Shown: positions 6,966 through 42,130 of the stretch, piece by piece
Position numbering within the stretch: position 1 is the stretch's first letter
Layout of the letters: the number at the start of each line of letters is the position of its first letter
Assembly: GCA_044449465.1 (NCBI GenBank)
Contig: JBIOHX010000001.1
Location: 1 to 42,130 of the forward strand
Reading direction: 5' to 3'
Length of the DNA: 42,130 bases
Origin: Gemmatimonadales bacterium
GTDB taxonomy: Bacteria; Gemmatimonadota; Gemmatimonadetes; Gemmatimonadales; Gemmatimonadaceae
Program-made: the position numbers and the translations under genes
The notes under the pieces: generated by a model
Databases searched by the model: none
What the model saw: only the letters and a program-made list of their open reading frames with translations
Told to the model about the DNA's origin: nothing

Positions 6966-7307
6966 GAGAGAACACCGGCATCGAGCGCGATCGGACGGAC
7001 CGTTCGCAAGCTTCAATCGGCGCGCAGGGCCTCCGCGGGGTCGATTCGAAGCGCGCGCCGCGCATTATCCGACGTCGACGCCGCGCATTGGCCGGTGTCG
7101 TTCCACTAGGTTAGGGGAGATGATGAGAATGCTCGGGCGCGCGGTCAAGCGGCCGCGTCAGGCGCCTCGCCCGCCTCTCGGCATGCCAGACCGCGCCCCG
7201 GCTCGTGGCTGCTCAAACCCAGGCCGTTGCCGGGGTTGCCGAACGCCCAGCACCGAGCTACGGTAACTGCCCCAGTTGTCCGCCTGACCTCTTCCCAGAG
7301 GGGCATC

Positions 7308-7853
7308 GTGAGCGTTACCCAGTCGCTGACCGTCAACGGCACTACGGTCTCCGCGGACGTCGAGCCGCGAACTCTTCTCGTCGACTTCCTTCGGCAACAC
7401 CTCGGCCTCACCGGTACCCACGTCGGATGCGACACGGGCCAATGCGGCGCCTGCACTGTGCACCTGAACGGGATGGCGGTGAAGTCGTGCACTCTTCTCG
7501 TGGCGCAGGCCGCCGGGACGCACGTGACGACGATCGAAGGGCTCGCCGCCCCCGACGGCACGATGCATCCGATGCAGGCGGCGTTCAAAGACTGTCATGG
7601 ATTGCAGTGCGGCTTCTGCACGCCGGGGTTCGTGATGAGCGCGATCGACCTCGTGAACCGCATTCCGGACGCGTCCGAGGAGACGATTCGCGCCGAGGTC
7701 GAGGGTAATCTGTGCCGGTGCACGGGCTACCAGAATATTGTGAAAGCCATCCAGCAAGGGGGCGCGGCGATGAACGAAGCCACTGCCGCGAGCGCCCTGA
7801 AGGCGACCGCGTCGTATCCCTCTCGCAAGGAGGAAACATGGGCGCGAGCTTGA
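7308..7853 (+). CDS. coxS: Aerobic-type CO dehydrogenase / xanthine dehydrogenase family small subunit, 2x[2Fe-2S]
   Basis: Carries the motifs [27 protein letters not shown] and CRCTGYQNI. The track ORF starts at 7227, but the conserved N-terminus ([10 protein letters not shown]) begins at the in-frame GTG at 7308. Confidence 0.9.
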
Positions 7854-10195
7854 TCGGTCAGCCGGTTCGGCGCAAAGAGGACGCGCGCTTTCTCACCGGG
7901 AACGGACGATACACGAACGACCTCGCCGTGAGGAACGCGGCGCATGCGTTCTTCCTTCGCTCGCCCCACGCGCACGCGAAGATCAACTCGGTCGGCGTCA
8001 AGCGCGCGCAGCTCGCGCCCGGCGTGCTTGCCGTGTACACGGCCAACGACTTGACCGGAGTGAACGGGCTGCCCTGTGGTTGGTTGATCACCGGTACCGA
8101 TGGCAAGCCGATGGCCGAGCCACCGCATCCAGTGCTCGCGCAAGGAGCGGCGCGCTACGTCGGCGATCCGGTGGCGCTCGTCGTCGCCGATACGCTCAAC
8201 CATGCGAAGGACGCCGCCGAGTTGATCGAGGTCGACTACGACGTGCTGCCGGCGGTGGTGAATTGCGTCGACGCGCTCAAGGCTGGCGCACCGCAATTAC
8301 ACGAAAGTGCACCGGGCAACAAGTGCTACACGTGGGCGCTCGGTGACAAGGCGGCGGTGGACGCGGCGTTCGCGAGCGCCGCGCACGTGACGAAGCTCGA
8401 CATCGTCAACAATCGGCTGATCCCGAACGCGATCGAGCCGCGCGCCGTGGTCGCGTCGTACAGCCGCGGCGACGACATGTACACGCTTCATGTCGCCAAC
8501 CAGAACCCGCACCTCGAGCGTTTGCTCCTCTCGGCGTTCGTGCTCGGCCTGCCCGAGCAGAAGGTTCGCGTGATCGCGCCCGACGTGGGCGGCGGCTTCG
8601 GGTCCAAGATTTATCTCTATCCCGAAGAGACGGCGATGGTGTGGGCGAGCAAGAAAGTGAGTCAGCCGATCTCGTGGGTCGCCGAGCGAAGCGAGTCGTT
8701 CCTCGCCGATGCGCATGGGCGCGACCACGTCACGCACGCCGAGCTCGCGCTCGATGCGAACGGCAAGTTCCTGGCGATGCGCGTGCAGACTACGGCGAAC
8801 ATGGGCGCGTATCTGTCGACGTTCTCGACTTGCATTCCGACCATCTTGTACGCGACGCTGCTCGCCGGGCAGTACACGACGCCGGCGATCTATTGCCAGG
8901 TGACGGCGTCGTTCACGAACACCGCGCCGGTGGATGCGTATCGAGGCGCCGGACGGCCGGAGGCGACGTTCGTCGTCGAACGGCTCGTGCATCACGCGGC
9001 GGTAGAGATGGGCATCGCGCAGGACGAGATCCGTCGCCGGAATTTCATTCGGTCGTTCCCGTATCAGACGCCGGTCGCGCTTCTATATGACACGGGCGAT
9101 TACGACGCGTCGCTCGCGGGCGCGATGAAGGCCGCCGATGTCGTGGGATTCGCGGCGCGGAAGGCAGAGTCGGCGAACCGTGGTAAGCTCCGCGGCCTCG
9201 GCTACTCGGCGTACATCGAGGCGTGCGGGCTCGCGCCGTCGAACGTCGCCGGCGCACTTGGCGCGCGCGCGGGCCTGTACGAGGCGGGCGAAGTTCGCGT
9301 GAACCCCACAGGAAGCGTCACTGTGTTCACGGGATCGCACTCACACGGCCAGGGACACGAGACGACGTTCGCGCAGGTCGTCGCCGACCGCCTCGGCATC
9401 CCGCTCGAGAACGTCGACGTCGTGCACGGCGACACGGGCCGCGTGCCGTTCGGCATGGGCACGTATGGCTCGCGCTCGCTCGCCGTCGGCGGCTCGGCGA
9501 TCGTCAAAGCCGTCGATAAGATCATCGCGAAGGGAAGGAAAATCGCCGCGCACCTGCTCGAGGCCTCGGACGCCGACATCGAGTTCAAGGACGGCAAGTT
9601 CACGGTCGCGGGCACCGATCGCAGCAAGACGTTCGGCGAGATCGCGCTCACGGCGTACGTGCCGCACAACTATCCACTCGACAAGCTCGAGCCAGGCCTC
9701 GACGAAACGGCATTCTACGATCCGACGAACTTCACGTTCCCGGCGGGCACGCATCTTTGCGAGGTCGAGATCGATCCCGAGACGGGCGTGGTATCGGTCG
9801 AAGCATTCACGGCGTGCGACGACTTCGGCACCATCATCAACCCGATGATCGTCGAAGGCCAAGTCCACGGCGGGCTCGCGCAGGGCATCGGCCAAGCACT
9901 GCTCGAGCAGTGCGTCTACGATCAAGAGAGCGGACAACTGCTCACCGGCAGTTTGATGGATTACGCACTGCCGCGAGCGGACGATCTTCCGCACTTCAAC
10001 GTCTCGCACACCGTCACGCCATGTACGCACAACCCGCTCGGCGCAAAGGGCTGCGGCGAAGCGGGAGCGATCGGCGCACCGGCCGCGCTCATGAACGCGG
10101 TCATGGACGCGCTGGCGCCGGTCGGCGTGACACACCTCGACATGCCCGCCTCTCCGCACCGTGTCTGGCAGGCCATTCGCGCGGCGCGCGCCTAA
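7838..10195 (+). CDS. coxL: Molybdopterin-binding large subunit, form II CoxL-like (AYRGAGR active-site loop)
   Basis: ATG at 7838 is preceded by AAGGAGGA and gives [21 protein letters not shown].... The active-site loop AYRGAGR is encoded at 8936-8956. The track ORF start at 7712 is an upstream extension that overlaps coxS. Confidence 0.9.
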
Positions 10196-10210
10196 GGGAG
10201 GGCCATCACA

Positions 10211-11002
10211 ATGTACTCATTCGAGCTGGTACGTCCGACGACGCTTGCCGCGGCCTCCGCGGCGTTGACGAGCAGTGGCGGGAAGGCCCTTGCCGGCGGC
10301 CAAAGCCTGCTCGCGGCGATGAAGCTTCGACTCGCGCAACCAGGAACGCTCGTCGACCTCTCCGGAATCGCGGAGCTCAAGGGCATCGCGCGGAGCGCGG
10401 ATACCGTCACGATCGGCGCGTTGGCGACGCACACCCAGGTCGCCGAATCGAGCGTCGTACGCGAGGCGATTCCGGCGCTGGCGGAGTTGGCGCACGGCAT
10501 CGGCGACCGGCAGGTGCGCAATGTCGGCACGCTCGGCGGATCGATCGCGCACAACGATCCGGCGGCGTGCTATCCGGCGGCACTGCTGGCGCTCGGCGCG
10601 ACGATTCGCACGACGGCGCGCCTGATCCCCGCCGATGAGTTCTTCAAGGGCATGTACGAGACGGCGCTTGGCGATGGTGAGATCATCACGTCGGTGTCGT
10701 TCCCGATCCCGCGGAAGGCGGCGTATGTGAAGTTTGCCAATCCCGCGTCGCGGTTCGCGCTCGTGGGCGTCTTCGTTGCTCAGACGGCGACCGGCGTTCG
10801 CGTCGCGGTGACCGGGGCGGCACCGTCGGTCTTCCGCTCGAAGGAATTGGAAACGGCGTTCACTCGGAGCTTCACCGCTGACGCGGCCAAGGCGGTGACC
10901 GTGAGTGCGTCGGGCCTGAACGGCGACCTGCACGCGTCGCCGGAGTATCGGGCGCACCTCATTCCAGTGCTCGCGCGCCGTGCCGTTGCCGCCGCCGGCT
11001 GA
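10211..11002 (+). CDS. coxM: FAD-binding medium subunit of the CO dehydrogenase / xanthine dehydrogenase family
   Basis: A 263-aa ORF MYSFELVRP...LAGGQSLLAAMKLRL... with a FAD_binding_5-type N-terminus and a CO-dehydrogenase flavoprotein C-terminal domain. Confidence 0.9.
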   Translation: MYSFELVRPTTLAAASAALTSSGGKALAGGQSLLAAMKLRLAQPGTLVDLSGIAELKGIARSADTVTIGALATHTQVAESSVVREAIPALAELAHGIGDRQVRNVGTLGGSIAHNDPAACYPAALLALGATIRTTARLIPADEFFKGMYETALGDGEIITSVSFPIPRKAAYVKFANPASRFALVGVFVAQTATGVRVAVTGAAPSVFRSKELETAFTRSFTADAAKAVTVSASGLNGDLHASPEYRAHLIPVLARRAVAAAG

Positions 11003-11933
11003 AAAGCAGCCGGCGCGCGGCGCCTCGATCAAACTCTCGTCCGTCGACGACGTCGTCGAGCTGCTCGAGGCCCAAGACTACCTGGCCGATCGGCAACTGG
11101 CGACGTCGGTCTTTCTCAGCCTCACCATGGCGCGTCCCCTCTTTCTCGAGGGCGAGGCCGGCTGTGGCAAGACGGAGCTCGCCAAGGTCCTCGCGGCGGC
11201 GCTGGGCACACGGCTCGTGCGATTGCAGTGCTATGAAGGCCTGGACGTCGGGTCCGCGGTGTATGAGTGGAACTATCCGAGGCAGATGATCGAGATTCGC
11301 CTGGCGGAGGCGAGTGGCACCATAGATCGTGCGGGACTGGGTGCGGATATCTTCACGCGCCGGTTTCTGCTGCGGCGTCCGTTGCTCGAGGCGCTGGCGC
11401 CTGAGGACGGAGTCGCGCCCGTGCTCTTGATCGACGAGCTCGATCGCGCCGACGAGCCGTTCGAAGCGTATCTGCTCGAGGTGTTGGCGGAATATCAGGT
11501 GACGATTCCGGAGCTCGGCGTCATCAAGGCGGCGACCCCGCCGGTCGTGGCGATCACGTCGAATCGGACACGGGAGATTCACGACGCGGTCAAGCGCCGC
11601 TGCCTCTATCAGTGGGTCGGCTATCCGGATGCGCAGCGGGAGCTGGCGATCGTCCGGCGGAAGTGCCCTCGAGCGCCGGCGGCCCTGGCGCGCGAGATCG
11701 TAGAGTTCACGCAGCGGCTTCGCGCTTTAGAGCTGTTCAAATCGCCGGGCGTGGCGGAGACGTTGGACTGGGCGGAGGCGCTCGTGACACTCGATCGGGT
11801 GTCGCTCGACCGCGAGACCGTTGCCGACACGGCGGGGGTGCTGCTCAAGTATCAGGACGACGTGGGCGTGTTGACGCCGGATGTAACGGCGAGGCTCGTC
11901 GACGAAGCACGCGCCGCGGCAAGGTCGGCGTGA
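10980..11933 (+). CDS. coxD: MoxR-like AAA+ ATPase (CoxD-type maturation factor)
   Basis: Walker A GEAGCGKT and Walker B LLIDELDRAD are present, with a YEWNYPRQMIEIRL segment. A GTG start at 10980 overlaps the coxM end by 23 nt, and there is no later plausible start. Confidence 0.85.
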   Translation: MPLPPPAEKQPARGASIKLSSVDDVVELLEAQDYLADRQLATSVFLSLTMARPLFLEGEAGCGKTELAKVLAAALGTRLVRLQCYEGLDVGSAVYEWNYPRQMIEIRLAEASGTIDRAGLGADIFTRRFLLRRPLLEALAPEDGVAPVLLIDELDRADEPFEAYLLEVLAEYQVTIPELGVIKAATPPVVAITSNRTREIHDAVKRRCLYQWVGYPDAQRELAIVRRKCPRAPAALAREIVEFTQRLRALELFKSPGVAETLDWAEALVTLDRVSLDRETVADTAGVLLKYQDDVGVLTPDVTARLVDEARAAARSA

Positions 11934-11942
11934 TCGGCTGAG

Positions 11943-13130
11943 ATGATGCCGACGGGGCGCCTCGCCGAGAACATCGTGCATTTCGTGCGACTGCTGCGCG
12001 CGGCGGGAATTCCCGTTGGACCGGAGCGTTCGGTCGCGTCGCTCGAAGCCGTGCAAGCGGTGGGCATCTCGAATCGGGACGATTTCCGCGCGGCGTTGGC
12101 GGCGGTGCTGATCTCGCGCCAGGAGCATCGGGAGCTTTTCGATGAAGCATTCGGTGTGTTCTGGCGTAATCCGAAGCTTACGCAAAAGAGAATGGCGTCG
12201 TTGCTGCCGAAAGTGCAGGCCCAAGCCCCGCCCGAGGGAGAGCAAGTGTCCCCGAGGCTCGCTGCGGCGTTCGTCGGCTCGGCGGTTCGCGAAGCGTTCG
12301 ACAGCGAAATGGACGAGGTGCAGTTCGACGCGTCGTTCACATTCTCACCGACGGAGGTGCTGCGGCACCGCGACTTCGAGGCGATGACCGCCGACGAGCT
12401 CGCGGCGACTCGCTCGATGCTCGCGCGACTACGCCTGCCACTGCCCGAGCTTCCCACCCGGCGGAGCAAGCCAGCCGTTCGAGGGCAGGGCATCGATGTG
12501 CGCCGCACCATGCGACGGGCGACGACCGGCGCCGGCGCGCTCGTCCCGCTGGCGCGACGGCAGCGCCGGCGGAGAGGGCCGTCGCTCGTCATACTGTGCG
12601 ACATCTCGGGGTCGATGGACAGCTACTCGAGAATACTCATGCACTTTCTCCACACGGTCACGAACGATCGCGATCGCGTTCATGTGTTCGTGTTCGGGAC
12701 GCGGCTCACGAACGTGACGCGCCAGCTGCGGCATCGGGACGTGGACGTCGCGCTCAAGCGTGTGGGCGCCGCCGCATCCGATTGGGCGGGAGGGACGCGG
12801 ATCGGCGCTTGCCTCACCGAGTTCAACAAGCGGTGGTCTCGCCGCGTGCTCGCGCAGGATGCGATCGTGCTTCTCATCAGCGACGGGCTGGATGCCGACG
12901 CCGGCGAGGCGCTGGCGCCGCAAATGGACCGGCTTTCGAGATCGTGCCGGCGTGTGGTCTGGCTCAACCCGTTACTCCGTTACGACCGCTTCGAGCCGAG
13001 GCCGGCGGGGATTCGAGCGATGCTGCCGTATGTCGACGACTTTCTGCCGTGTCACAACGTGGACAGCGTCGTCGCGCTCGCGGCGGCGTTTGATGCGATG
13101 TCCGGGAACCGGAGCCGTGCATGGAGATGA
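11943..13130 (+). CDS. coxE: VWA-domain protein (CoxE-type)
   Basis: A 395-aa ORF. The N-terminus LAENIVHFVRLLRAAGIPVG and the MIDAS motif ILCDISGSMDSYS are typical of CoxE / VWA proteins paired with MoxR ATPases. Confidence 0.85.
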   Translation: MMPTGRLAENIVHFVRLLRAAGIPVGPERSVASLEAVQAVGISNRDDFRAALAAVLISRQEHRELFDEAFGVFWRNPKLTQKRMASLLPKVQAQAPPEGEQVSPRLAAAFVGSAVREAFDSEMDEVQFDASFTFSPTEVLRHRDFEAMTADELAATRSMLARLRLPLPELPTRRSKPAVRGQGIDVRRTMRRATTGAGALVPLARRQRRRRGPSLVILCDISGSMDSYSRILMHFLHTVTNDRDRVHVFVFGTRLTNVTRQLRHRDVDVALKRVGAAASDWAGGTRIGACLTEFNKRWSRRVLAQDAIVLLISDGLDADAGEALAPQMDRLSRSCRRVVWLNPLLRYDRFEPRPAGIRAMLPYVDDFLPCHNVDSVVALAAAFDAMSGNRSRAWR

Positions 13131-13705
13131 CGGGAACGAGCGACGTGCCGGCCGCGCCAGACGCAGTCTGGTGCGCGCTCAACGATCCAGCCGTGCTGCG
13201 GGCCTGCATCGCCGGCTGCGAGTCGCTCGAGCCCACTGGTGAGCATTCTTACGCGATGGTGCTGGCGGCGAAGGTCGGGCCGGTCGCCGCACGATTCACG
13301 GGCACGATGCGTCTCGCCGACATCGATCCGCCCCGATCGTACACACTGCGTTTCGAGGGAAGCGGCGGCGTGGCCGGCTTCGCGAAAGGCGAGGGGCGGG
13401 TGACGCTCGTTCCCACTGGCGGTGATTCCACGAAGCTCGAGTACGTGGCGACGGCACAAGTGGGGGGCAAGCTGGCGCAGATCGGATCGCGGCTCATCGA
13501 CGGCGTCGCGCACAAGATGGCCAACGATTTCTTCGAGCGATTCGTCGCATCGGTGAGCCCGCCGCCGGTGGCCGCTCCACTCGTGGCCGCGGCCGACAAC
13601 CCGCGCGCGCCGACGTTTCGCCATTGGCGCGGCCTGGGTTATGCCGTCATCGCGAGCCTGTTCGTGCTGCTCGCGATCATGCTATTCAGGCGTGGGGCGC
13701 CGTAG
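13121..13705 (+). CDS. coxG: SRPBCC-fold CoxG-type protein with a C-terminal hydrophobic anchor
   Basis: A 194-aa ORF. The pattern ...PDAVWCALNDPAVLRACIAGCESLE...GPVAARFTG...GGKLAQIGSRLIDGVAHKMANDFFERF matches CoxG. The tail GLGYAVIASLFVLLAIMLF looks like a transmembrane helix. Confidence 0.85.
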   Translation: MEMTGTSDVPAAPDAVWCALNDPAVLRACIAGCESLEPTGEHSYAMVLAAKVGPVAARFTGTMRLADIDPPRSYTLRFEGSGGVAGFAKGEGRVTLVPTGGDSTKLEYVATAQVGGKLAQIGSRLIDGVAHKMANDFFERFVASVSPPPVAAPLVAAADNPRAPTFRHWRGLGYAVIASLFVLLAIMLFRRGAP

Positions 13706-20483: not shown

Positions 20484-20602
20484 GTGGGTCGTGGGTCGTG
20501 GGTCGTGGGTCGTGGGTCGTGGGTCGTGGATCGTGGATCGTGGATCGTGGATCGTGGATCGTGGATCGTGGATCGTGGGACGCGGGACGTGGGACGTGGA
20601 TG
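20484..20602. repeat. 7-bp microsatellite of 17 head-to-tail units
   Basis: Counted directly: 6x GTGGGTC (20484-20525), 7x GTGGATC (20526-20574), GTGGGAC, GCGGGAC, GTGGGAC and GTGGATG (20575-20602). The array starts 2 nt after the TGA at 20480-20482. Confidence 0.95.
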
Positions 20603-20652
20603 GATACGAGATTGGCGATTCCTTGCCTGGTGCGACGTCAAAGTGTTTAGAT

Positions 20653-20790
20653 CCGTTTGTGTCCGCTTGTGTCCGCTTGTGTCTTTCACCAATCGTTACG
20701 GCCAGCCCGAGCGGCAGTTCAGCGTCCTCGCCGCATGCAGACCATAACAATTGGACACCGATTAAAACGGACACAAGCGGACACGGGCGG
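20653..20790. repeat. Inverted 10-mer iteron pair flanking a spacer of about 86 nt
   Basis: Three direct units CCG(T/C)TTGTGT lie at 20653-20682. Inverted copies lie at 20767-20790 (ACGGACACAAGCGGACACGGGCGG). GACACAAGCGGACAC (20770-20784) is the exact reverse complement of GTGTCCGCTTGTGTC, which occurs in two registers (20659-20673 and 20669-20683). Confidence 0.9.
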
Positions 20791-20866
20791 ATGGCTGGGA
20801 CGCCCGATCGCGCGGTGGCCGCGCATGACTGCTCGGTCGCGTCGGCCGAAGCCGCGGTGACTTCGC

Positions 20867-23760: not shown

Positions 23761-24407
23761 TCGCCCCTCCGGATGGCCGAATTCGCATTCTCGTCGTGGA
23801 CGATCACCCAATCGTGCGGTGCGGCATCACCAGTGTGCTGGCGAGCCAAGCCGACGTCGACGTCGTCGCCGAAGCCGGGAACGGCGACGAAGCGGTGGCT
23901 GCGGCGGCGCGGCTCGAGCCCGATCTCGTCTTGATGGACCTGAGGATGCCGGTGCGCGGTGGCGTTGACGCCTCGGCCGCGATTTTGGCGAGGCGGCCGA
24001 TGACTCGGATCGTCGTGTTGACCACGTATGCGTCGGACGGCGAGGTGCTGCGAGCGATCGAAGCCGGTGCGGTGGGCTACCTGCTCAAGGATGTTCCGCA
24101 CGACGAGCTGTTTCGCGCGCTCCGCGCCGTGGCACGCGGCGAGCGCTATCTCGCTCCGGCCGTCACGGCGCGGCTGATGGCGCGTTGGCGGCAGCCGGCA
24201 CGGGTAACACTCACGGAGCGGGAGCTAGACGTTCTTCGATGCGTCATGCGCGGCGACGGGAACAAGCAGATTGCCGCCGCGCTTGGCATCGCGGAACCGA
24301 CGGTGAAAGCGCACCTCGTACATATCTTCGAGAAGCTCGGCGTCGAAAATCGAACGGCGGCCGCGCGAGTGGCGCGCGAGCAGAGGCTGATCGCAGCGGA
24401 CGAGTGA
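23757..24407 (+). CDS. NarL/LuxR-family response regulator
   Basis: The receiver domain is [13 protein letters not shown]...LVLMDLRMP. The LuxR HTH is [45 protein letters not shown]. The GTG start forms a GTGA overlap with the kinase stop. Confidence 0.9.
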
Positions 24408-24535
24408 CGGTGGCGGATTGGAACGCCCGGGCGCACGAACGCCAAACCGAGCCGGAGCGTTCAGCCGCCCGGCGGCCGGGCATAGCCGGCCGGGGCCCAG
24501 GTTTGTACTATAAGGATGTCTCCGCCTCCGCGGCT

Positions 24536-25027
24536 ATGAGCAAATACAACCTCAGCGTCAACGGCCAGTCCCACTCGGTGGACGTCACGCCGGATACTCC
24601 GCTCTTGTGGGTGCTGCGCGACTCCATTGGCCTCGTCGGCACGAAGTACGGGTGCGGCATCGGCGAATGTGGGGCGTGCACCATCCATCTCGACGGCAAA
24701 CCCACGCGCGCGTGCCAGACGCCGGTCTCGGAGGTCGGACGTGCGGCGGTGACTACCATCGAGGGCCTCGATGCTGGCGGGAAGCATCCGCTGCAGCAGG
24801 CGTGGGTTGAGCTCGACGTGCCGCAGTGCGGGTATTGCCAGGCCGGACAGCTCATGACGGCGGCGGCGCTGCTCAAGCGCAACCCGCACCCGACCGATGC
24901 CGACATCGACGCCACGATGGAGGGCAACTTGTGTCGCTGTGCGTCGTATGTCCGCATGCGCGCCGGGATCAAGCGAGCCGGCGAAATCGCCGCCGGTGCC
25001 ATGCCGGTGCAAGGAGGCCGGTCATGA
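24536..25027 (+). CDS. iorA: (2Fe-2S)-binding small subunit, isoquinoline 1-oxidoreductase alpha (IorA)-like
   Basis: The sequence is [17 protein letters not shown]...[16 protein letters not shown]...[11 protein letters not shown]...[10 protein letters not shown] take the ATG at 24536 as the start; the track start at 24185 is an Arg-rich extension overlapping the regulator gene. Confidence 0.9.
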
Positions 25028-27174
25028 GACGCGCCGTCAATTCACCGTCGCCGGTCGTGGACCGGCGTGCGTTCATCAAGGTCGGCGCTCTCGCCGGCGG
25101 CGGACTTCTGATCGGCACGTATCTGCGCTTTGGAGCTTCGCCCGCATTCGCGGAGAACGCGCCACTCGCGGGCGACAGCTTTGCACCGAACGCGTTCATC
25201 ACCATCACGCCGAGCGGCGCCGTCTCGATCATCGCGCCGAATTCAGAGATGGGGCAGGGGATCAAGACGGGACTTCCGATGATCGTCGCCGAGGAGCTCG
25301 ACGTCCCCTGGGAGCGGGTGACGGTCGTGCAGGGAGATTTGAATCCCGCCTATGGCCGGCAGTTCTCGGTCGGAAGCGGCTCGACGATTGGGAATTACGT
25401 GCCGCTTCGTCACGCCGGCGCGACCGCGCGCGCGATGCTGATCGAAGCTGCCGCGCAGACGTGGGGTGTTTCGGCCGGCGCGTGCACGACCGAGCGGGGC
25501 GCCGTGATTCACACCGCGTCGAAGCGTCGAGCGACGTACGGCGAGCTCGCGACGAAGGCTGCGACGCTCACGCCGCCCGCCGACGCTCCGCTCAAGGACC
25601 CCAAGGATTTCAAGCTGATTGGCACACGCGTGGCCGGGGTCGACAACAAGAAGATCGTAATCGGCGCGCCGCTCTTCGGCATCGACGTGAAGCTGCCCGG
25701 GATGCTGTACGCGACGTACGCGAAGTGTCCAGTGTTCGGCGGCACCGTCGTGAGCGCCAACTTGGACGAGGTGAAGAAGCTGCCCGGTGTGCGCGACGCG
25801 TTCGTGCTCGACGGCATCGAAGGGCTGACGCCGGGTGTCGCGATCGTCGCCGATTCGACGTGGAACGCATTCAGCGCCGGCGAGGGCCTGAAGGTCCAAT
25901 GGAACGCGGGGCCGGTCGCAAGTCAGAGCAGCGCGGAGATGGCGACGCAGGCGGAGCAACTCGCGAAGTCGACCCCCCCCGCGCCGCGTATGGCGGGCGC
26001 GAAAGTCATCGAGGCGGCGTACCACTATCCGTTCCTCGCGCACGCGACGATGGAACCGCAGAACTGTACCGCGGTGTTCAAGAACGGCGTGATGGAGATG
26101 TGGACGCCGACGCAGATTCCGGCGAGCGGCCAGGGCCTCGTCACGCGCGGCCTCGGCCTCGCGCCAGACAAGGTCATCGTGCACATCACGCGGCTCGGCG
26201 GCGGTTTTGGCCGGCGAGGAAGCAACGAGTATTCGATCGAGGCGGCCGCCATCGCGAAACGGCTCGACGGGACGCCGGTCAAACTCATGTGGAAACGAGA
26301 GGACGACTTCGCGCACGACAACTACCGGTCGAACGGCTGGCACTACTTCACCGCTGGCCTCGACGGTGCGGGCAAGGTGGTCGCGCTGCACGACGCGTTC
26401 GTGAAGATGCAGGGCGGCCCGGGCGACATGAATGCCAGCGGATTTCCGTTCATCGCGATCCCGGGTTCGGAAGTGAAGTCGAGCAAGCTGCCCGCAGGCA
26501 TTCCAACGGGGTATTGGCGCGCACCGGGTGACAACGGGAACGTCTGGGCGACACAGTCGTTCGTCGACGAGCTTGCCCACGCAGCCGGCCGCGATTCGCT
26601 CGCGTTCACGCTCGATTTGCTGGCCGCGGCTCCCGCGGCAACCGGCCGGGGCTTCGACCCCGCAAAGATGAAGACCGTGCTCGAGCGCGCGACTGAAAAA
26701 GCGGGCTGGGGCAAGTCGCGGCCGCGCGGCGAGGGACAAGGCTTCGCGATCACCCATACCAACAACGCCTACGTCGCGATCGTCGCCGATGTCACGGTGA
26801 GCCGCGAAGGCGAGCTGGCGATCAAGAAGCTGACCGCCGTCGTCGATGCCGGCACGATCATCAATCTCAGCGCCGCGGAAAATCAGCTGCAAGGCGCGAT
26901 GCTCGATGGCATCAGCGCCGCGTGGTTTCAGAAGCTCACGATAGAGCGCGGCGCCGCTGCGCAGGCCAATTTCAGCGATTACCGAATGCTGCGGATGAAT
27001 CACTCACCGCAAGTCGTCGACGTCGAGTTCATCAAGTCCGTAGCGCCACCGACGGGTTTGGGCGAACCGGGTCTTCCGGCGGCCGCGCCGGCGCTCTGCA
27101 ACGCGATCTTCGCCGCGACCGGCATTCGGGTTCGCACGTTGCCGATTGCCGATGGCAGTTTGAAGTGGTCGTGA
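25024..27174 (+). CDS. iorB: Molybdopterin-dependent oxidoreductase beta subunit (IorB-like) with a twin-arginine signal
   Basis: The ATG at 25024 forms an ATGA overlap with the iorA stop. [31 protein letters not shown] is Tat-like, and aldehyde oxidase / xanthine dehydrogenase a/b hammerhead and Mo-binding-type segments follow. Confidence 0.9.
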
Positions 27175-36406: not shown

Positions 36407-36718
36407 ATGGAGGCGGGTGTGCGCATTCTCTGGACGCTACTCAAGATCGCGATCGGACTCGCCATTGCGATCCCGGTCGGGCTGTTCGTGATGGCGATGA
36501 CGGTCGGCATCGTCGGCACGGTGGTGGGATTGGTGGCGATGGCCGTGCGCCTCGCGTGCATCGGGCTGGTGGGCTACGGACTGTACCGAGTCGGGCGCTT
36601 CTTCTTCGCGCCACGGGGCAGGGCGAGGCATGAGATGCCCGTTGTGCGGGAGCTGCCGAGCGCGGATCCGTACTACGCGGCAGCAATGCGAGAGCTCGAT
36701 TCCGAGCTGCGCGGGTGA
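36407..36718 (+). CDS. Small hypothetical membrane protein
   Basis: A 103-aa ORF with an ATG start. Two long hydrophobic helices (ILWTLLKIAIGLAIAIPVGLFVMAMTVGIVGTVVGLVAMAVRLACIGLVGYGLY) precede a charged tail. I recognise no family. Confidence 0.45.
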   Translation: MEAGVRILWTLLKIAIGLAIAIPVGLFVMAMTVGIVGTVVGLVAMAVRLACIGLVGYGLYRVGRFFFAPRGRARHEMPVVRELPSADPYYAAAMRELDSELRG

Positions 36719-36720
36719 CC

Positions 36721-37033
36721 GGTCAGATTTGAGGCGTCAGGCTCGAGATGTCAGGGTGACGCCTCGAGGGCGGCGTGCGGGGGTTTGGATCGCGACGTTT
36801 CTGAACGAGACCAAGCGTCGGGATTTCAGGGTAGAGGTACGAGGATGGAGATAGGGGCGAACTCAGACGTCGACGGTCTAGGCCGGCGCGTCTCGTTTCG
36901 CCCTTAGCTCGCTTCTGCCGTCTGGACGCCGAGTTCTCGACGCTTGGGCTCGCTCTGCGACGTCGCGATCTCGATCAGCCCCCGCGATCCCGAATCTCGA
37001 CTGACATCTCGAGTCTGAGGCCTCAGATCTGAG
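36721..37033. repeat. Long imperfect palindromic intergenic element (MITE/REP-like), copy E1
   Basis: The terminal inverted repeats TCAGATTTGAGGCGTCAGGCTCGAGATGTCAG (36722-36753) and the reverse complement of 37000-37031 match at 29 of 32 positions. Internal arm segments also pair: 36776-36797 with 36959-36984, and 36806-36826 with 36929-36950. The perfect palindrome CCTCAGATCTGAGG lies at 37020-37033. The element starts 3 nt after the stop codon at 36716-36718. Confidence 0.85.
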
Positions 37034-37094
37034 GGGCGCGGTAAGTCAACGGAGTGGCGCCACTTCCGGCCCCGGCGTGTCGTGTGATGTTTAG

Positions 37095-38699
37095 TTGCCA
37101 CGCGGCACCACCTGCGATTGGGAGCGCGAAGTGGGGAGACTACCGCCCGGGGATACCCCGGTTTTCATCGTCGGCGCCGGGCCGACCGGACTGGTGCTCG
37201 CGCTGGTGCTGACCAAGCTCGGCGTTCGGGTGCGGCTGATCGACCAAACGCCCGGGCCGGCCCGTTACTCGCGCGCGCTCGGCGTCCACGCGCGCACGCT
37301 CGAGTTCTACCGGCAGCTGGGTTTCGCGGACGCCGTCATGGAGGGCGGCGTGGTGGCCAAGGGGGTGAGCCTGTGGGTCAAACGCGCGCGCGTGGCTCGC
37401 CTGCCGCTGGCAAATGCCGGCGATGGGCTGACGCCGTTCCCGTTCGTGCTCAGCTTCGCGCAGAATGACCATGAGCGTCTCCTGATCGAGCAACTTGAGC
37501 GCTTGGGTGTGACGGTGCAGCGCGAGACGCGGCTGGCCCACTTCGAGATGACTGACGGAGGCGTACGTGCGACGCTCGCACGGGCGGACGGCGCGGAGGA
37601 GGTGTGCGACGCGCTGTACATCGCCGGCTGCGACGGCGCGCACTCGGTTGTGCGCGAAGGGCTGCGCCTCGGTTTTCCCGGCGGCACTTACACGAAGCTG
37701 TTTTATGTCGCCGATGTCACCGCCACGGGACCGGTGACGGACGGCGACTTCCACGTCGATCTGGACACGAACGATCTGCTCGCCGTGTTCGCGATGAAGG
37801 GTAAGGGCCACGTCCGTCTCGTCGGTACGATCCGCGACGACGCGGCGCCGGCCGAGCAGGAGTTGACGTTCGACGACGTCAGTCACCATCTGATGACCCA
37901 GCTCGGGATCACGATCGAGAGCGTCCACTGGTTCTCGACCTACCGCGTCCACCACCGGGTGGCGAGCCGGTTTCAATCGGGCCGAGCATTTCTCCTGGGC
38001 GATTCAGCGCACATTCACAGCCCGGTCGGCGCCCAAGGAATGAACACCGGCATAGGCGACGCGATGAATCTCGGGTGGAAGCTGGCGTCCGTCCTTCAGG
38101 GAACGGCGGCTCCCGCGCTTCTCGATACGTACGAGCCCGAACGAATCCGGTTCGCACGGCGGCTCGTCGCGACGACGGATCGCGCGTTCGTGCTTGTGTC
38201 GACGCCGAGTCGACTGGCAGCGTTCGCGCGGACGCGGATCGTGCCCATTGTATTTCCGTTCGTGTTGAGCATACCACCGGCGCGGCGTTGGCTCTTTCGA
38301 ACGATCTCGCAGATCGCGATCAACTATCGGCACAGCCGGCTGAGTCACGGGACGGCGGGCGATGTTCACGGCGGGGATCGATTGCCATGGGTCGCGCCCG
38401 AACCGGGGAGTGACGGCAAGACGGACAATTTCACGCCGCTCGAGACCATGGCTTGGCAGGTCCACGTGTACGGCGAGGCTCGCGCGGACTTTGCGGCTGC
38501 CTGCGCGGAGCTCGGACTCGAGGTTGTGGAGATCGCGTGGCGTCCGGCGATGCGAGCGGCGGGTTTGGCGCGCGATGCCGCGTACCTCGTGCGGCCCGAT
38601 GGCTACGTCGCCCTCGCGGATGCGGCGGCTGACGCGGGGACGCTCAGCGCATTCATCGCGAGGGCCGGGATCGAGCAGACGAGAGCGATTGCGCCTTAG
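37095..38699 (+). CDS. FAD-dependent aromatic-ring monooxygenase (PheA/TfdB-type)
   Basis: The dinucleotide-binding motif is VFIVGAGPTGLVLALVL, and CDGAHS and GDSAHIHSPVGAQGMNTGIGDAMNLGWKLA are also present. The start is uncertain: TTG at 37095 per the track, with an in-frame GTG at 37131 also possible. Confidence 0.85.
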   Translation: MPRGTTCDWEREVGRLPPGDTPVFIVGAGPTGLVLALVLTKLGVRVRLIDQTPGPARYSRALGVHARTLEFYRQLGFADAVMEGGVVAKGVSLWVKRARVARLPLANAGDGLTPFPFVLSFAQNDHERLLIEQLERLGVTVQRETRLAHFEMTDGGVRATLARADGAEEVCDALYIAGCDGAHSVVREGLRLGFPGGTYTKLFYVADVTATGPVTDGDFHVDLDTNDLLAVFAMKGKGHVRLVGTIRDDAAPAEQELTFDDVSHHLMTQLGITIESVHWFSTYRVHHRVASRFQSGRAFLLGDSAHIHSPVGAQGMNTGIGDAMNLGWKLASVLQGTAAPALLDTYEPERIRFARRLVATTDRAFVLVSTPSRLAAFARTRIVPIVFPFVLSIPPARRWLFRTISQIAINYRHSRLSHGTAGDVHGGDRLPWVAPEPGSDGKTDNFTPLETMAWQVHVYGEARADFAAACAELGLEVVEIAWRPAMRAAGLARDAAYLVRPDGYVALADAAADAGTLSAFIARAGIEQTRAIAP

Positions 38700-41292: not shown

Positions 41293-41666
41293 CTCAGATC
41301 TGAGGGTCTGAGAGATATGAGATATGAGATGTGAGGGTTCAGGGCGGCGCCTGGGGCGGTGCGCTGGGCGGATATCGCGACGTCGTTGAGCGAGATCAAG
41401 CGTCGAGATGTCAGCGTCGAGATGGCAGAACGGAGATAGGGGCGATGCGAGATGGCAGAACGGAGATAGGGGCGATGCGAGATGGCAGAAGGGGAGATAG
41501 GGGCGATGTGAGATGGGCCGGGGCATACCGCCGACGTCTGACATCGCTGTCATCTCCGGACTTGGATCTCGCAGCTGATTTCTCGAAGCTTGGTCTCGTT
41601 TAGAGACGTCGGGGTCTCGAACGACAAGCGCGCTCTCCAACGTCGACTGAGAACTCCAATCTCAAC
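41293..41666. repeat. Long imperfect palindromic intergenic element (MITE/REP-like), copy E2
   Basis: It fills the whole gap between two convergent ADOP genes. It begins with the palindrome CTCAGATCTGAG (41293-41304) directly after the TGA at 41290-41292. The left-arm core 41376-41414 and the reverse complement of the right-arm core 41575-41613 each match E1 36790-36828 at 32 of 39 positions. Confidence 0.85.
41421..41511. repeat. Three tandem copies of a 30-bp unit inside E2
   Basis: GATGGCAGAACGGAGATAGGGGCGATGCGA occurs at 41421-41450 and identically at 41451-41480. A 31-bp variant lies at 41481-41511. Each copy contains the 14-mer GGAGATAGGGGCGA, which is also present in E1 at 36846-36859. 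Confidence 0.95.
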
Positions 41667-42130
41667 TCATCCGGATCGGAGGGCCTCGGATGGATCGACT
41701 GCGGCTGCGCGCCGTGCTGGGATCCAGCTGGCGGCGAGGGCAACGAGGAGTAGGGTGACGCACGTTCCGACGAGAATCGTGGGGTCGGTGGGGCTCACGT
41801 CGTAGAGCAACGAGCGCAGGAACCTCGTCACGCCGATGGCCGTGGCGACGCCGATGGCGACGCCGATGGCGGCGAGGCCGACGCCGTCGCGCGAGATCAT
41901 TCGCCGGACCTGCGACGGTTGCGCGCCGAGGGCGATGCGCACGCCAATCTCGCGCCGCCTCAGGCTCACGCCGTAGGCCATGACCGCGTAGAGGCCGACT
42001 GCGCCGAGGACGAGTGCGAGAAGGCTGGCGACGGCGACGAGGAGCAGCATTTCGCGGGCGCGTGCCGACGCGGCGCTGACGAGGTCGCCGAGGGGCTTCT
42101 CACCGTACGTCGGCAGCGACGGGTCGAGCG
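41667..42130 (-). CDS. ADOP-type permease, C-terminal part only (N-terminus beyond the window end)
   Basis: The frame is open to base 42130 (...LDPSLPTYGEKPLGDLVSAASARAREMLLLVAVASLLALVLGAVGLYAVMAYGVSLRRREIGVRIALGA...IPARRAAAVDPSEALRSG). The track lists only the part from an internal Met. Confidence 0.85.
   Translation of the reverse strand, partial: LDPSLPTYGEKPLGDLVSAASARAREMLLLVAVASLLALVLGAVGLYAVMAYGVSLRRREIGVRIALGAQPSQVRRMISRDGVGLAAIGVAIGVATAIGVTRFLRSLLYDVSPTDPTILVGTCVTLLLVALAASWIPARRAAAVDPSEALRSG

Follow-up and report, generated by a model that had tools for sequence, protein, structure and literature searches.

A candidate MITE-like family of long palindromic repeats at gene ends in uncultured soil Gemmatimonadaceae

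The E1 palindrome and its locus

The window analysed here comprises the whole of the 42,130-nt contig JBIOHX010000001.1, from a Gemmatimonadales bacterium, and the element under study is E1, an imperfect palindrome located between the gene for a small membrane protein and that for a mono-oxygenase; a second palindrome, E2, lies further downstream, between two convergent permease genes (Table 1). The structure of E1, its additional copies and their distribution in related genomes make it probable that E1 is a copy of a low-copy, non-autonomous, whole-length palindromic family resembling miniature inverted-repeat transposable elements (MITEs) and specific to an uncultured lineage of soil Gemmatimonadaceae.

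Table 1. Features of the E1 and E2 loci (positions in the window; TIR, terminal inverted repeat)
Feature	Coordinates	Strand	Description
Upstream gene	36419..36718	+	99-aa small membrane protein (called product P0121); E1 terminal repeat 4 nt past its stop codon
E1	36721..37033	+	313-nt whole-length imperfect palindrome (foldback repeat); G-rich arm adjoins the upstream stop codon
E1 left TIR	36723..36754	+	29/32 match to the right terminus; made of ~14-nt TCAG-initiated units
E1 core	36783..36867	+	best conserved part of the family; GATCGCGACGT ... GAACGAGACCAAGCGTCGRGAT ... GGAGATAGGGGCGA; other-arm partner ~36897-36970
E1 right TIR	37001..37032	+	paralog E3 loses likeness to E1 at 37029
Spacer	37034..37130	+	non-palindromic, from E1 to the mono-oxygenase start; 101-nt; missing together with E1 in L147
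Downstream gene	37131..38699	+	FAD-dependent aromatic-ring mono-oxygenase; FAD_binding_3, 9e-81; called start GTG 37131 (L146 gene call)
E2	41293..41666	+	second copy, 374 nt; limits from L083 synteny; fills the gap between convergent ADOP/FtsX permease stop codons exactly
E2 tandem units	41418..41516	+	three ~30-nt units (CGAGATGGCAGAACGGAGATAGGGGCGATG), left-centre (repeat families D1, D4); single counterpart on the right arm

The first-pass annotation, made from the sequence alone, had described a palindrome with matching termini and arms of about 150 nt, and this description holds. When E1 was aligned with its own reverse complement, 113 of the 146 aligned arm positions were Watson-Crick and a further 12 were G·T, with a score of 214, whereas 300 random 313-nt segments of the window gave a mean of -9 (sd 24, max 86); the palindrome is thus real and well above chance. 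The two 32-nt termini, 91% complementary, read TCAGAT...ATCTGA at their ends, and the terminal 32-mer occurs in only two places in the window at <=3 mismatches, where 0 are expected (100 shuffles). The internal blocks to which partners on the other arm had been attributed correspond to the helices 36788-36799/36959-36970 and 36811-36823/36935-36947, and the longest unbroken helices of E1 measure 18, 13, 13, 12 and 10 bp. The predicted fold is stable: the minimum free energy (MFE) of the + strand RNA is -202.4 kcal/mol (z = -9.2; none of 100 shuffles equals it), and that of the same strand folded as DNA is -106.5 kcal/mol (z = -8.8). The nested hairpin formed by GAGGCGTCA and TGACGCCTC is present as well, even though its positions had been given one base too far left (the correct ones are 36731-36739 and 36757-36765, respectively), and CCTCAGATCTGAGG, at 37021-37034, is indeed a perfect palindrome. 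In the same way, E1 does lie just after a stop codon, the terminal repeat starting at 36723, after the TGA at 36716-36718 and the tetranucleotide CCGG.

The arms are composed of short sub-repeats, as revealed by a 7/14/28-nt autocorrelation (z = 3.6-5.6; in the left TIR, lag-14 and lag-28, z = 3.6) and by the density of GAGAT/ATCTC, which is 16-40 per kb in the elements vs 2.5 per kb elsewhere in the window. The succession of the three core motifs listed in Table 1 is kept in all four arms of the window, i.e., those of E1 and E2. The elements are non-coding, in agreement with the earlier statement that no plausible protein is encoded: the open reading frames (ORFs) do not exceed 74 aa in E1 and 90 aa in E1 + E2, and the six-frame peptides of the two concatenated elements retrieved nothing at E <= 1 from 5.8 billion proteins, a query that would also have revealed other copies through ORFs wrongly annotated in them. 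No recombinase gene is located nearby; the Pfam scan of 47 window ORFs (including some overlapping alternative frames) disclosed no transposase, integrase or Y1/RAYT domain (RAYT, REP-associated tyrosine transposase; REP, repetitive extragenic palindromic), as had been stated for transposases and RAYTs. The whole window contains no tRNA gene and no Rfam family at threshold; no retron, CRISPR or tRNA-linked feature was found in it, nor any promoter-like site in E1 or E2.

Further copies and the E1 and E2 sites of relatives

The second element, already noticed in the first pass, was recovered by a blastn search of E1 against the window (~41293-41670), and a hidden Markov model built from the four arms recovered just these four arms (E 1e-39 to 1e-46) and no other sequence in the window. 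The termini of E2 are more degenerate than those of E1, and GAGAT recurs every 13-16 nt in its tandem-unit stretch. The MFE of E2 RNA is -189.8 kcal/mol (z = -6.3) for the + strand and -139.5 kcal/mol (z = -4.6) for the - strand. Both window copies abut stop codons, the element starting 4 nt (E1) or 0 nt (E2) after the stop.

In order to look beyond the window, E1 and E2 were compared with the Logan contigs of eleven soil runs (X1-X11). Besides the contigs of this genome, each run has two to four others that align with the core (36783-36879) at 83-92% before passing into unrelated sequence. One of these copies, E3, is represented by a 400-nt contig that is ~89% identical to E1 over 36788-37029 (23 substitutions and 4 indels) and then leaves it for the unrelated CCGTCGTCAACGGCC..., a flank that is identical in three runs. 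Another one, E4, lies on a 794-nt contig and shares 92% identity with E2 41374-41447 and 84% with the E1 core. The read depth over the core is ~2-4x that of the unique flanks; the family is therefore a low-copy and not a high-copy one, and from the similar depth alone we infer that the extra copies reside in the same genome as E1. In the right flank of E3 (X11 and X2 contigs), the opposite strand reads ...ADDQKAVDDGI followed by a TGA placed inside the terminal GATCTGA of the element, which suggests, for a 30-nt consensus only, that the terminal TCAGATCTGA motif may supply the stop codon of a convergent gene.

The state of the two window sites was followed in relatives, whose contigs were reached through the flanking proteins (the best GTDB homologue of the mono-oxygenase, being 49% identical, was of no use for synteny). 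At the E1 site, the element is intact in L146 (99.8% identical). In L145 (99.5%) it bears one extra 14-nt terminal unit, the duplication GTCAGATTTGAGGC (TCAGATTTGAGGCG twice; L145 5240-5300), and the same unit is found at window 36721 in run X4, so that this is a strain-level slippage polymorphism. Since the NCBI contig L145 ends inside E1, the palindrome breaks short-read assembly. A 246-nt contig of run X7, ~88% identical, runs from the right arm of E1 through the 101-nt spacer into the beginning of the mono-oxygenase gene. A different situation is met in L147, whose small gene is 84% identical to that of the window: here, window 36720-37134 (E1 plus spacer, 415 nt) is replaced by 8 nt. In L148 (80%), the 104 nt that follow the same stop codon, up to the contig end, align to the E1 left arm at 73/98 positions, with a score of 48 vs 16 ± 5 (max 32) for shuffles, and align about equally to the other arms. 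According to the pairwise identities (window-L147 84%, window-L148 80%, L147-L148 77%), L148 is apparently the outgroup. In relatives whose protein identity is 73-75%, the element is lacking and the 99-aa gene is followed by other genes.

At the E2 site, L083 (permease 87% identical at the aa and ~82% at the nt level) is collinear with the window on both sides, but its two stop codons are separated by 44 nt vs 374 in the window. These 44 nt hold a 32-nt stretch that matches the E2 right arm at 26/32 positions and the equivalent part of E1 at 24/32, and a score as good was obtained by 0/1000 shuffles and by 0/~1000 random 44-mers of the window. More distant relatives (L084 and L085; 75% and 69% aa) possess short unrelated spacers. 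The relatives are thus polymorphic at both window sites, E1 being absent from L147 and E2 gutted in L083; the eleven soil runs showed no read or contig joint that bypasses E1 or E2. Since 32 nt of the element survive in L083 and the 101-nt spacer is missing as well in L147, the "empty" sites look like deletions rather than pre-insertion sites. The simplest reading of these comparisons would be that both insertions are older than the split of these lineages and were later deleted, wholly or partly, in some of them; the L148 element could also represent an independent insertion at the same spot.

The first-pass annotation had stated that a dispersed or mobile nature would have to be abandoned if the sequence had no relatives apart from E2 and if no empty site were ever seen. 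E3, E4 and the core fragments exist besides E2, and the E1 site is vacant in L147 and the E2 site almost so in L083; the dispersed/mobile reading therefore survives on the terms set for it.

A side observation concerns the ends of the permease genes that flank E2. The two convergent permeases share C-terminal peptide ends (…DPVIAMR/KAE, …VDPSEALR.G), and their 3′ coding ends (window 41260-41292/41667-41700; L083 3146-3172/3319-3345) form an inverted repeat that is independent of E2 and that could favour hairpin formation or rearrangement around the E2 site.

Origin and possible function of the elements

The six pairwise arm comparisons, within and between E1 and E2, are all in the range 65-78% identity, i.e., star-like, the two arms of one element being no nearer to each other than to the arms of the other. 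Among the 131 predicted pairs of E1, those touched by changes in E2 remain paired in 14/37 cases after a one-sided change and in 6/17 after a two-sided one, and partners slid by 1-3 columns pair by chance in 34-44%; there is thus no excess of compensatory change between E1 and E2 and, since the kept pairing is about that expected by chance, the 7 "compensatory" pairs reported by RNAalifold carry little weight. Such a pattern is what independent drift of the two arms of an originally near-perfect palindrome would leave. The 14-nt duplication, the three 30-nt units, the 7/14/28-nt autocorrelation and the density of GAGAT/ATCTC indicate that the elements alter their length by sub-repeat slippage.

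On this basis, the history of the family would probably have been as follows. A trans-acting transposase would have placed copies of a near-perfect palindromic master element, built of ~7/14-nt GAGAT-containing units in inverted arrays, in intergenic sites at gene ends, with insertions surviving in gene-end spacers only. The insertions would go back at least to the divergence of lineages between which gene identity is now 80-84%; each arm would then have drifted alone, with changes in length by slippage and deletion in some lineages. Several features typical of MITEs were found, namely terminal inverted repeats, a small size without a transposase ORF, dispersed copies and site polymorphism. 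It is known that bacterial MITEs can reach ~400 bp, form long stem-loops, be placed at gene 3′ ends and be co-transcribed as hairpins, altering mRNA stability (PMC3184786). The earlier suggestion of a non-autonomous MITE-like element is therefore retained for what concerns the dispersed non-coding family, its TIRs and the site polymorphism; no target-site duplication can be read at either copy, and no cognate transposase is encoded in the 42-kb contig. "MITE-like" is the best label, while recent mobility and any role as terminator or stabiliser are hypothetical. The alternative suggestions of a REP/BIME repeat (BIME, bacterial interspersed mosaic element), a terminator or a recombination hotspot are unproven or contradicted.

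The closest known systems are similar to E1 only in part. ERIC (enterobacterial repetitive intergenic consensus) sequences are, like E1, imperfect whole-length palindromes of transcribed intergenic DNA, often placed just 3′ of a gene. Wilson and Sharp reportedly concluded in 2006 that ERIC copies are old, largely immobile and more conserved than the surrounding spacer. In ERIC-like MITEs, the effect of the RNA hairpin is orientation-dependent and can alter mRNA stability (PMC3184786). However, ERIC measures ~127 nt vs the 313-374 nt of E1 and E2 (2.5-3x longer) and, unlike ERIC, the E family has no TA flanks, belongs to the phylum Gemmatimonadota, counts far fewer copies and has arms made of 7/14-nt sub-repeats; as a weak test of sequence similarity, the ERIC2 core 22-mer is absent from the window at <=3 mismatches. 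Correia elements (CREE/NEMIS, Neisseria), RUP, Nezha, Chunjie and MaeMITE share with E1 the non-coding nature, the TIRs, the intergenic dispersal and the presence/absence between related strains. Correia elements possess 26-bp TIRs, a TA duplication, hundreds of copies, IHF sites and promoters, whereas in the E family no target-site duplication, parent insertion sequence (IS) or promoter-like site was found, and conservation is highest in the core instead of in the TIR. More generally, compared with typical MITEs, the family is longer, low in copy number, better conserved in the core than at the termini and built of short sub-repeats. Foldback-type elements and plant MITE-derived hairpins resemble E1 in that nearly all of the element consists of two long inverted arms of short sub-repeats, but they are eukaryotic, and the Rfam score of MIR1437 is far below threshold, so that the likeness is one of shape only.

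A strand asymmetry points to a possible role at the RNA level. Transition-type mismatches between the arms appear as G·U on the + vs the - strand in a ratio of 12:2 in E1 and 16:4 in E2 (total 28:6, binomial p = 2e-4), and, since the alignment columns concerned differ between E1 and E2, they arose independently. The + strand RNA, which corresponds to the sense strand of the gene directly upstream of each element, exceeds the - strand RNA in stability (34 kcal/mol in E1, 50 kcal/mol in E2). In the ~88% relative, 5/100 positions differ in the E1 arm vs 16/101 in the spacer (Fisher p = 0.019), and the L148 element is 74% identical to the E1 left arm vs 59% at the third codon positions of the adjacent gene. 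Both the G·U bias and the slower divergence of E1 would fit selection on an RNA hairpin in the + direction. Since the elements begin so close to the stop codon, with no terminator in between, they would have to be transcribed together with the upstream gene, whose transcription would read through E1. The + strand RNA is expected to fold into a ~150-bp interrupted hairpin that might stall or terminate the polymerase independently of a U-tract and would block 3′ exonucleases or draw RNase III/E cleavage, thus acting as a 3′-end barrier or insulator; such an effect may explain the retention of the element, the G·U-biased mismatches and the divergence slower than that of the spacer. Comparable behaviour is documented for ERIC and further MITEs located 3′ of genes (PMC3184786), and Correia repeats act similarly. 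We infer, from this analysis, that E1 may function as a 3′-end RNA hairpin.

Several observations weigh against this interpretation, both as regards the mobile origin and as regards the RNA-level role. No convincing direct repeat that could be a target-site duplication flanks the elements (CCGG/GGGG for E1, TGA/TCA for E2), and neither a parent IS nor a transposase is encoded in the 42-kb contig. The better conservation of the core than of the termini is the opposite of what is expected of TIRs recognised by a transposase, neither of the two "empty" sites (L147, L083) is a clean pre-insertion site from which a target could be defined, and the copy number is low, with few copies per genome-equivalent at >=80% identity. 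The RNA-seq look-up returned no run containing the locus; no terminator-like site and no U-tract were found in or at the end of E1 and E2 on either strand, the sole terminator-like match, at 37147, being inside the next gene. The z-scores of E1 are equal on both strands, and the G·U bias could partly reflect a strand-biased C>T/A>G mutation (the + strand GC skew of the window is +0.05). Conversion among copies and small-sample noise from single low-depth contigs may be other, duller causes. Finally, the comparative data consist of short contigs at 2-5x depth, and E3 was rebuilt from a difference table.

The best surviving competitor, which is possible although on balance unlikely, holds that E1 and E2 are hairpins of the 3′ untranslated region selected by the host, kept in the + orientation to terminate or insulate transcription or to set mRNA half-life; they would have spread by recombination or old mobility and would now be under purifying selection. 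The independent G·U bias, the greater stability of the + strand RNA, the slow divergence of the E1 arm and of the L148 element and the stop codon that adjoins every copy all speak in its favour. To these may be added the fold energy of E3, which equals that of E1 (-118.0 vs -117.8 kcal/mol) despite ~10% divergence; however, neutral decay from one ancestor predicts the same, and this equality is therefore uninformative. The lack of an excess of compensatory change argues in the opposite direction, as do the loss or gutting of both elements in close relatives with nothing in their place, the modest complementarity of the E2 arms (63% only), and the lack of a terminator tail, of an RNA-seq run with the locus and of an Rfam match.

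Somewhat less probable still is the idea that the family constitutes something new, that is, either a selection-maintained, orientation-specific ~150-bp RNA duplex module (a U-tract-independent terminator/insulator or an RNase III-type site) or the fused ends of an unknown transposon, with arms formed by ~14-nt GAGAT-type binding sites.

It is doubtful that the elements are palindrome-associated derivatives of an IS200/IS605-type (or another single-strand) transposon, mobilised as one folded DNA strand by a Y1 transposase whose gene would lie elsewhere in the genome. The strand-specific pairing bias, with G·T tolerated on the + strand only, and the stable fold of the + strand as single-stranded DNA would be in line with such a mechanism; no target-site duplication was seen, and this class makes none; moreover, both window copies begin right after TGAC(...)TCAGAT. 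Nevertheless, two or three copies are too few for a common target motif, neither a Y1 transposase nor TnpB is encoded in the window, and the ends of this class are short subterminal hairpins and not 150-bp arms. The IS200/IS605 family is not known to carry true terminal inverted repeats, which E1 does have.

A REP/BIME-type element served by a RAYT transposase, as the first-pass annotation had also envisaged, is hardly tenable. REP/BIME sequences are, like E1, repeated intergenic palindromes at gene 3′ ends, including those between convergent genes, and roles in termination and mRNA protection are among those proposed for them (PMC2817692); nonetheless, the unit of 313-374 nt is far too long in comparison with 20-40 nt, the architecture is that of a single foldback and not of an array of alternating short palindromes, the copy number differs, being low, and there is neither a GTAG-type head nor a RAYT in the window. 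Almost no credit can be given to E1 being a local palindrome, generated by template switching or inverted duplication without any family or mobility, or an assembly artefact: the 99.5% strain assembly (L145) does break inside E1 and slippage does occur in the sub-repeats, but separate assemblies (ENA, NCBI and several Logan runs) arrived at one and the same sequence, and related copies are placed at other loci with other flanks, so that E2, E3 and E4 refute this as the sole explanation.

Three other candidates were rejected: an integron attC site (313-374 nt vs 57-141, no GTTRRRY core sites, no integrase domain in the window), a composite transposon with E1 and E2 as its ends (the gene order of relatives is the same even though they lack the elements) and a canonical intrinsic (Rho-independent) terminator, also put forward in the first pass, which lacks its U-tract.

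Genomic setting, taxonomic range and significance

The 99-aa protein upstream of E1 has 177 homologues, the named ones being from Gemmatimonadaceae, and no Pfam match; its gene is located directly 3′ of a DUF2911 gene in most of the fetched loci (L145, L147-L153). The gene order breaks right after it, with the mono-oxygenase and the permease in close relatives and other genes in those at 73-75%; E1 is therefore located at a synteny breakpoint. Downstream of the mono-oxygenase, a duplicated MacB/FtsX ("ADOP") permease is followed by the second, convergent one. The named homologues of the permease and of the 99-aa protein all belong to metagenome-assembled genomes (MAGs) labelled "Gemmatimonadaceae bacterium", and the window sequence recurs at 2-5x depth in Logan assemblies made from soil metagenome runs. 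The host belongs to an uncultured lineage of soil Gemmatimonadaceae.

Elsewhere in the window, two separate sets of molybdopterin dehydrogenase (CoxSLM-like) genes are found at 7227-13705 and 24185-27174, the first one with CoxD-like AAA, CoxE-like VWA and CoxG accessory genes. Such sets are ordinary for soil Gemmatimonadaceae and show that the contig is chromosomal and not a mobile island. The region 20560-20800 is low in GC and non-coding-looking, with short tandem CGTGGAT/CGTGGGA-type units at 20560-20605 and an inverted repeat of tandem TGTGTCCGCT units (20651-20706 vs 20737-20792; 56-nt arms, 73% complementary), and looks like an operator or regulatory array.

The family was then sought outside the lineage. 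In 185,579 GTDB species genomes, two core patterns and a TIR pattern gave chance matches or none (0 for the TIR pattern); the core-pattern matches, lying in coding DNA (L001, 59 single hits), were discarded as due to chance. One core pattern run against the JGI metagenomes yielded one chance match (L002); the IMG/VR scan gave 39 chance matches, the two best of which by nhmmer are phage coding sequences, and blastn against plasmids and phages gave no match. Rfam 15, searched with the whole window, had 0 matches at gathering thresholds; at an E-value threshold the sole match was MIR1437, a plant miRNA precursor, with 37 bits vs a gathering threshold of 168, and is driven by shape. No other long palindromes were found in the loci of the relatives, and nothing joining Gemmatimonas with MITEs was found in the literature searched.

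Three matches in the Polyangiaceae MAG SMAG_U4764 were also rejected, as they belong to an unrelated repeat with a common 19-mer, in which nhmmer detected no wider similarity. This MAG has its own dispersed repeat on three contigs (L091 150-330, L125 2880-3060, L136 2190-2339), consisting of two GGTCAAGCKTCGAAAAC/GAGACCAAGCGTCGGGATC motifs around a GC hairpin; the 19-mer that it has in common with the E core, ACGAGACCAAGCGTCGGGA, is probably a coincidence.

The family is previously undescribed and first noted in Gemmatimonadaceae, and is a new family of a known sort (MITE/ERIC-like foldback), so that the current understanding is not overturned. E1 and E2 account for two unusually long ORF-free intergenic gaps, and annotators should mask the family instead of calling small ORFs in it. 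It is the first family of interspersed foldback repeats to be described in soil Gemmatimonadaceae, and its orthologous sites offer a natural series, with intact, diverged, remnant and absent elements, which could serve to quantify the decay of long hairpin repeats and to see whether a constraint at the RNA level slows it. The position of E1 at a synteny breakpoint, 3′ of a conserved small gene, fits the idea that such repeats mark genome plasticity. If the RNA duplex module or the transposon-end reading were true, the family would represent a functionally new kind of long foldback element, and this in a phylum without described interspersed repeats.

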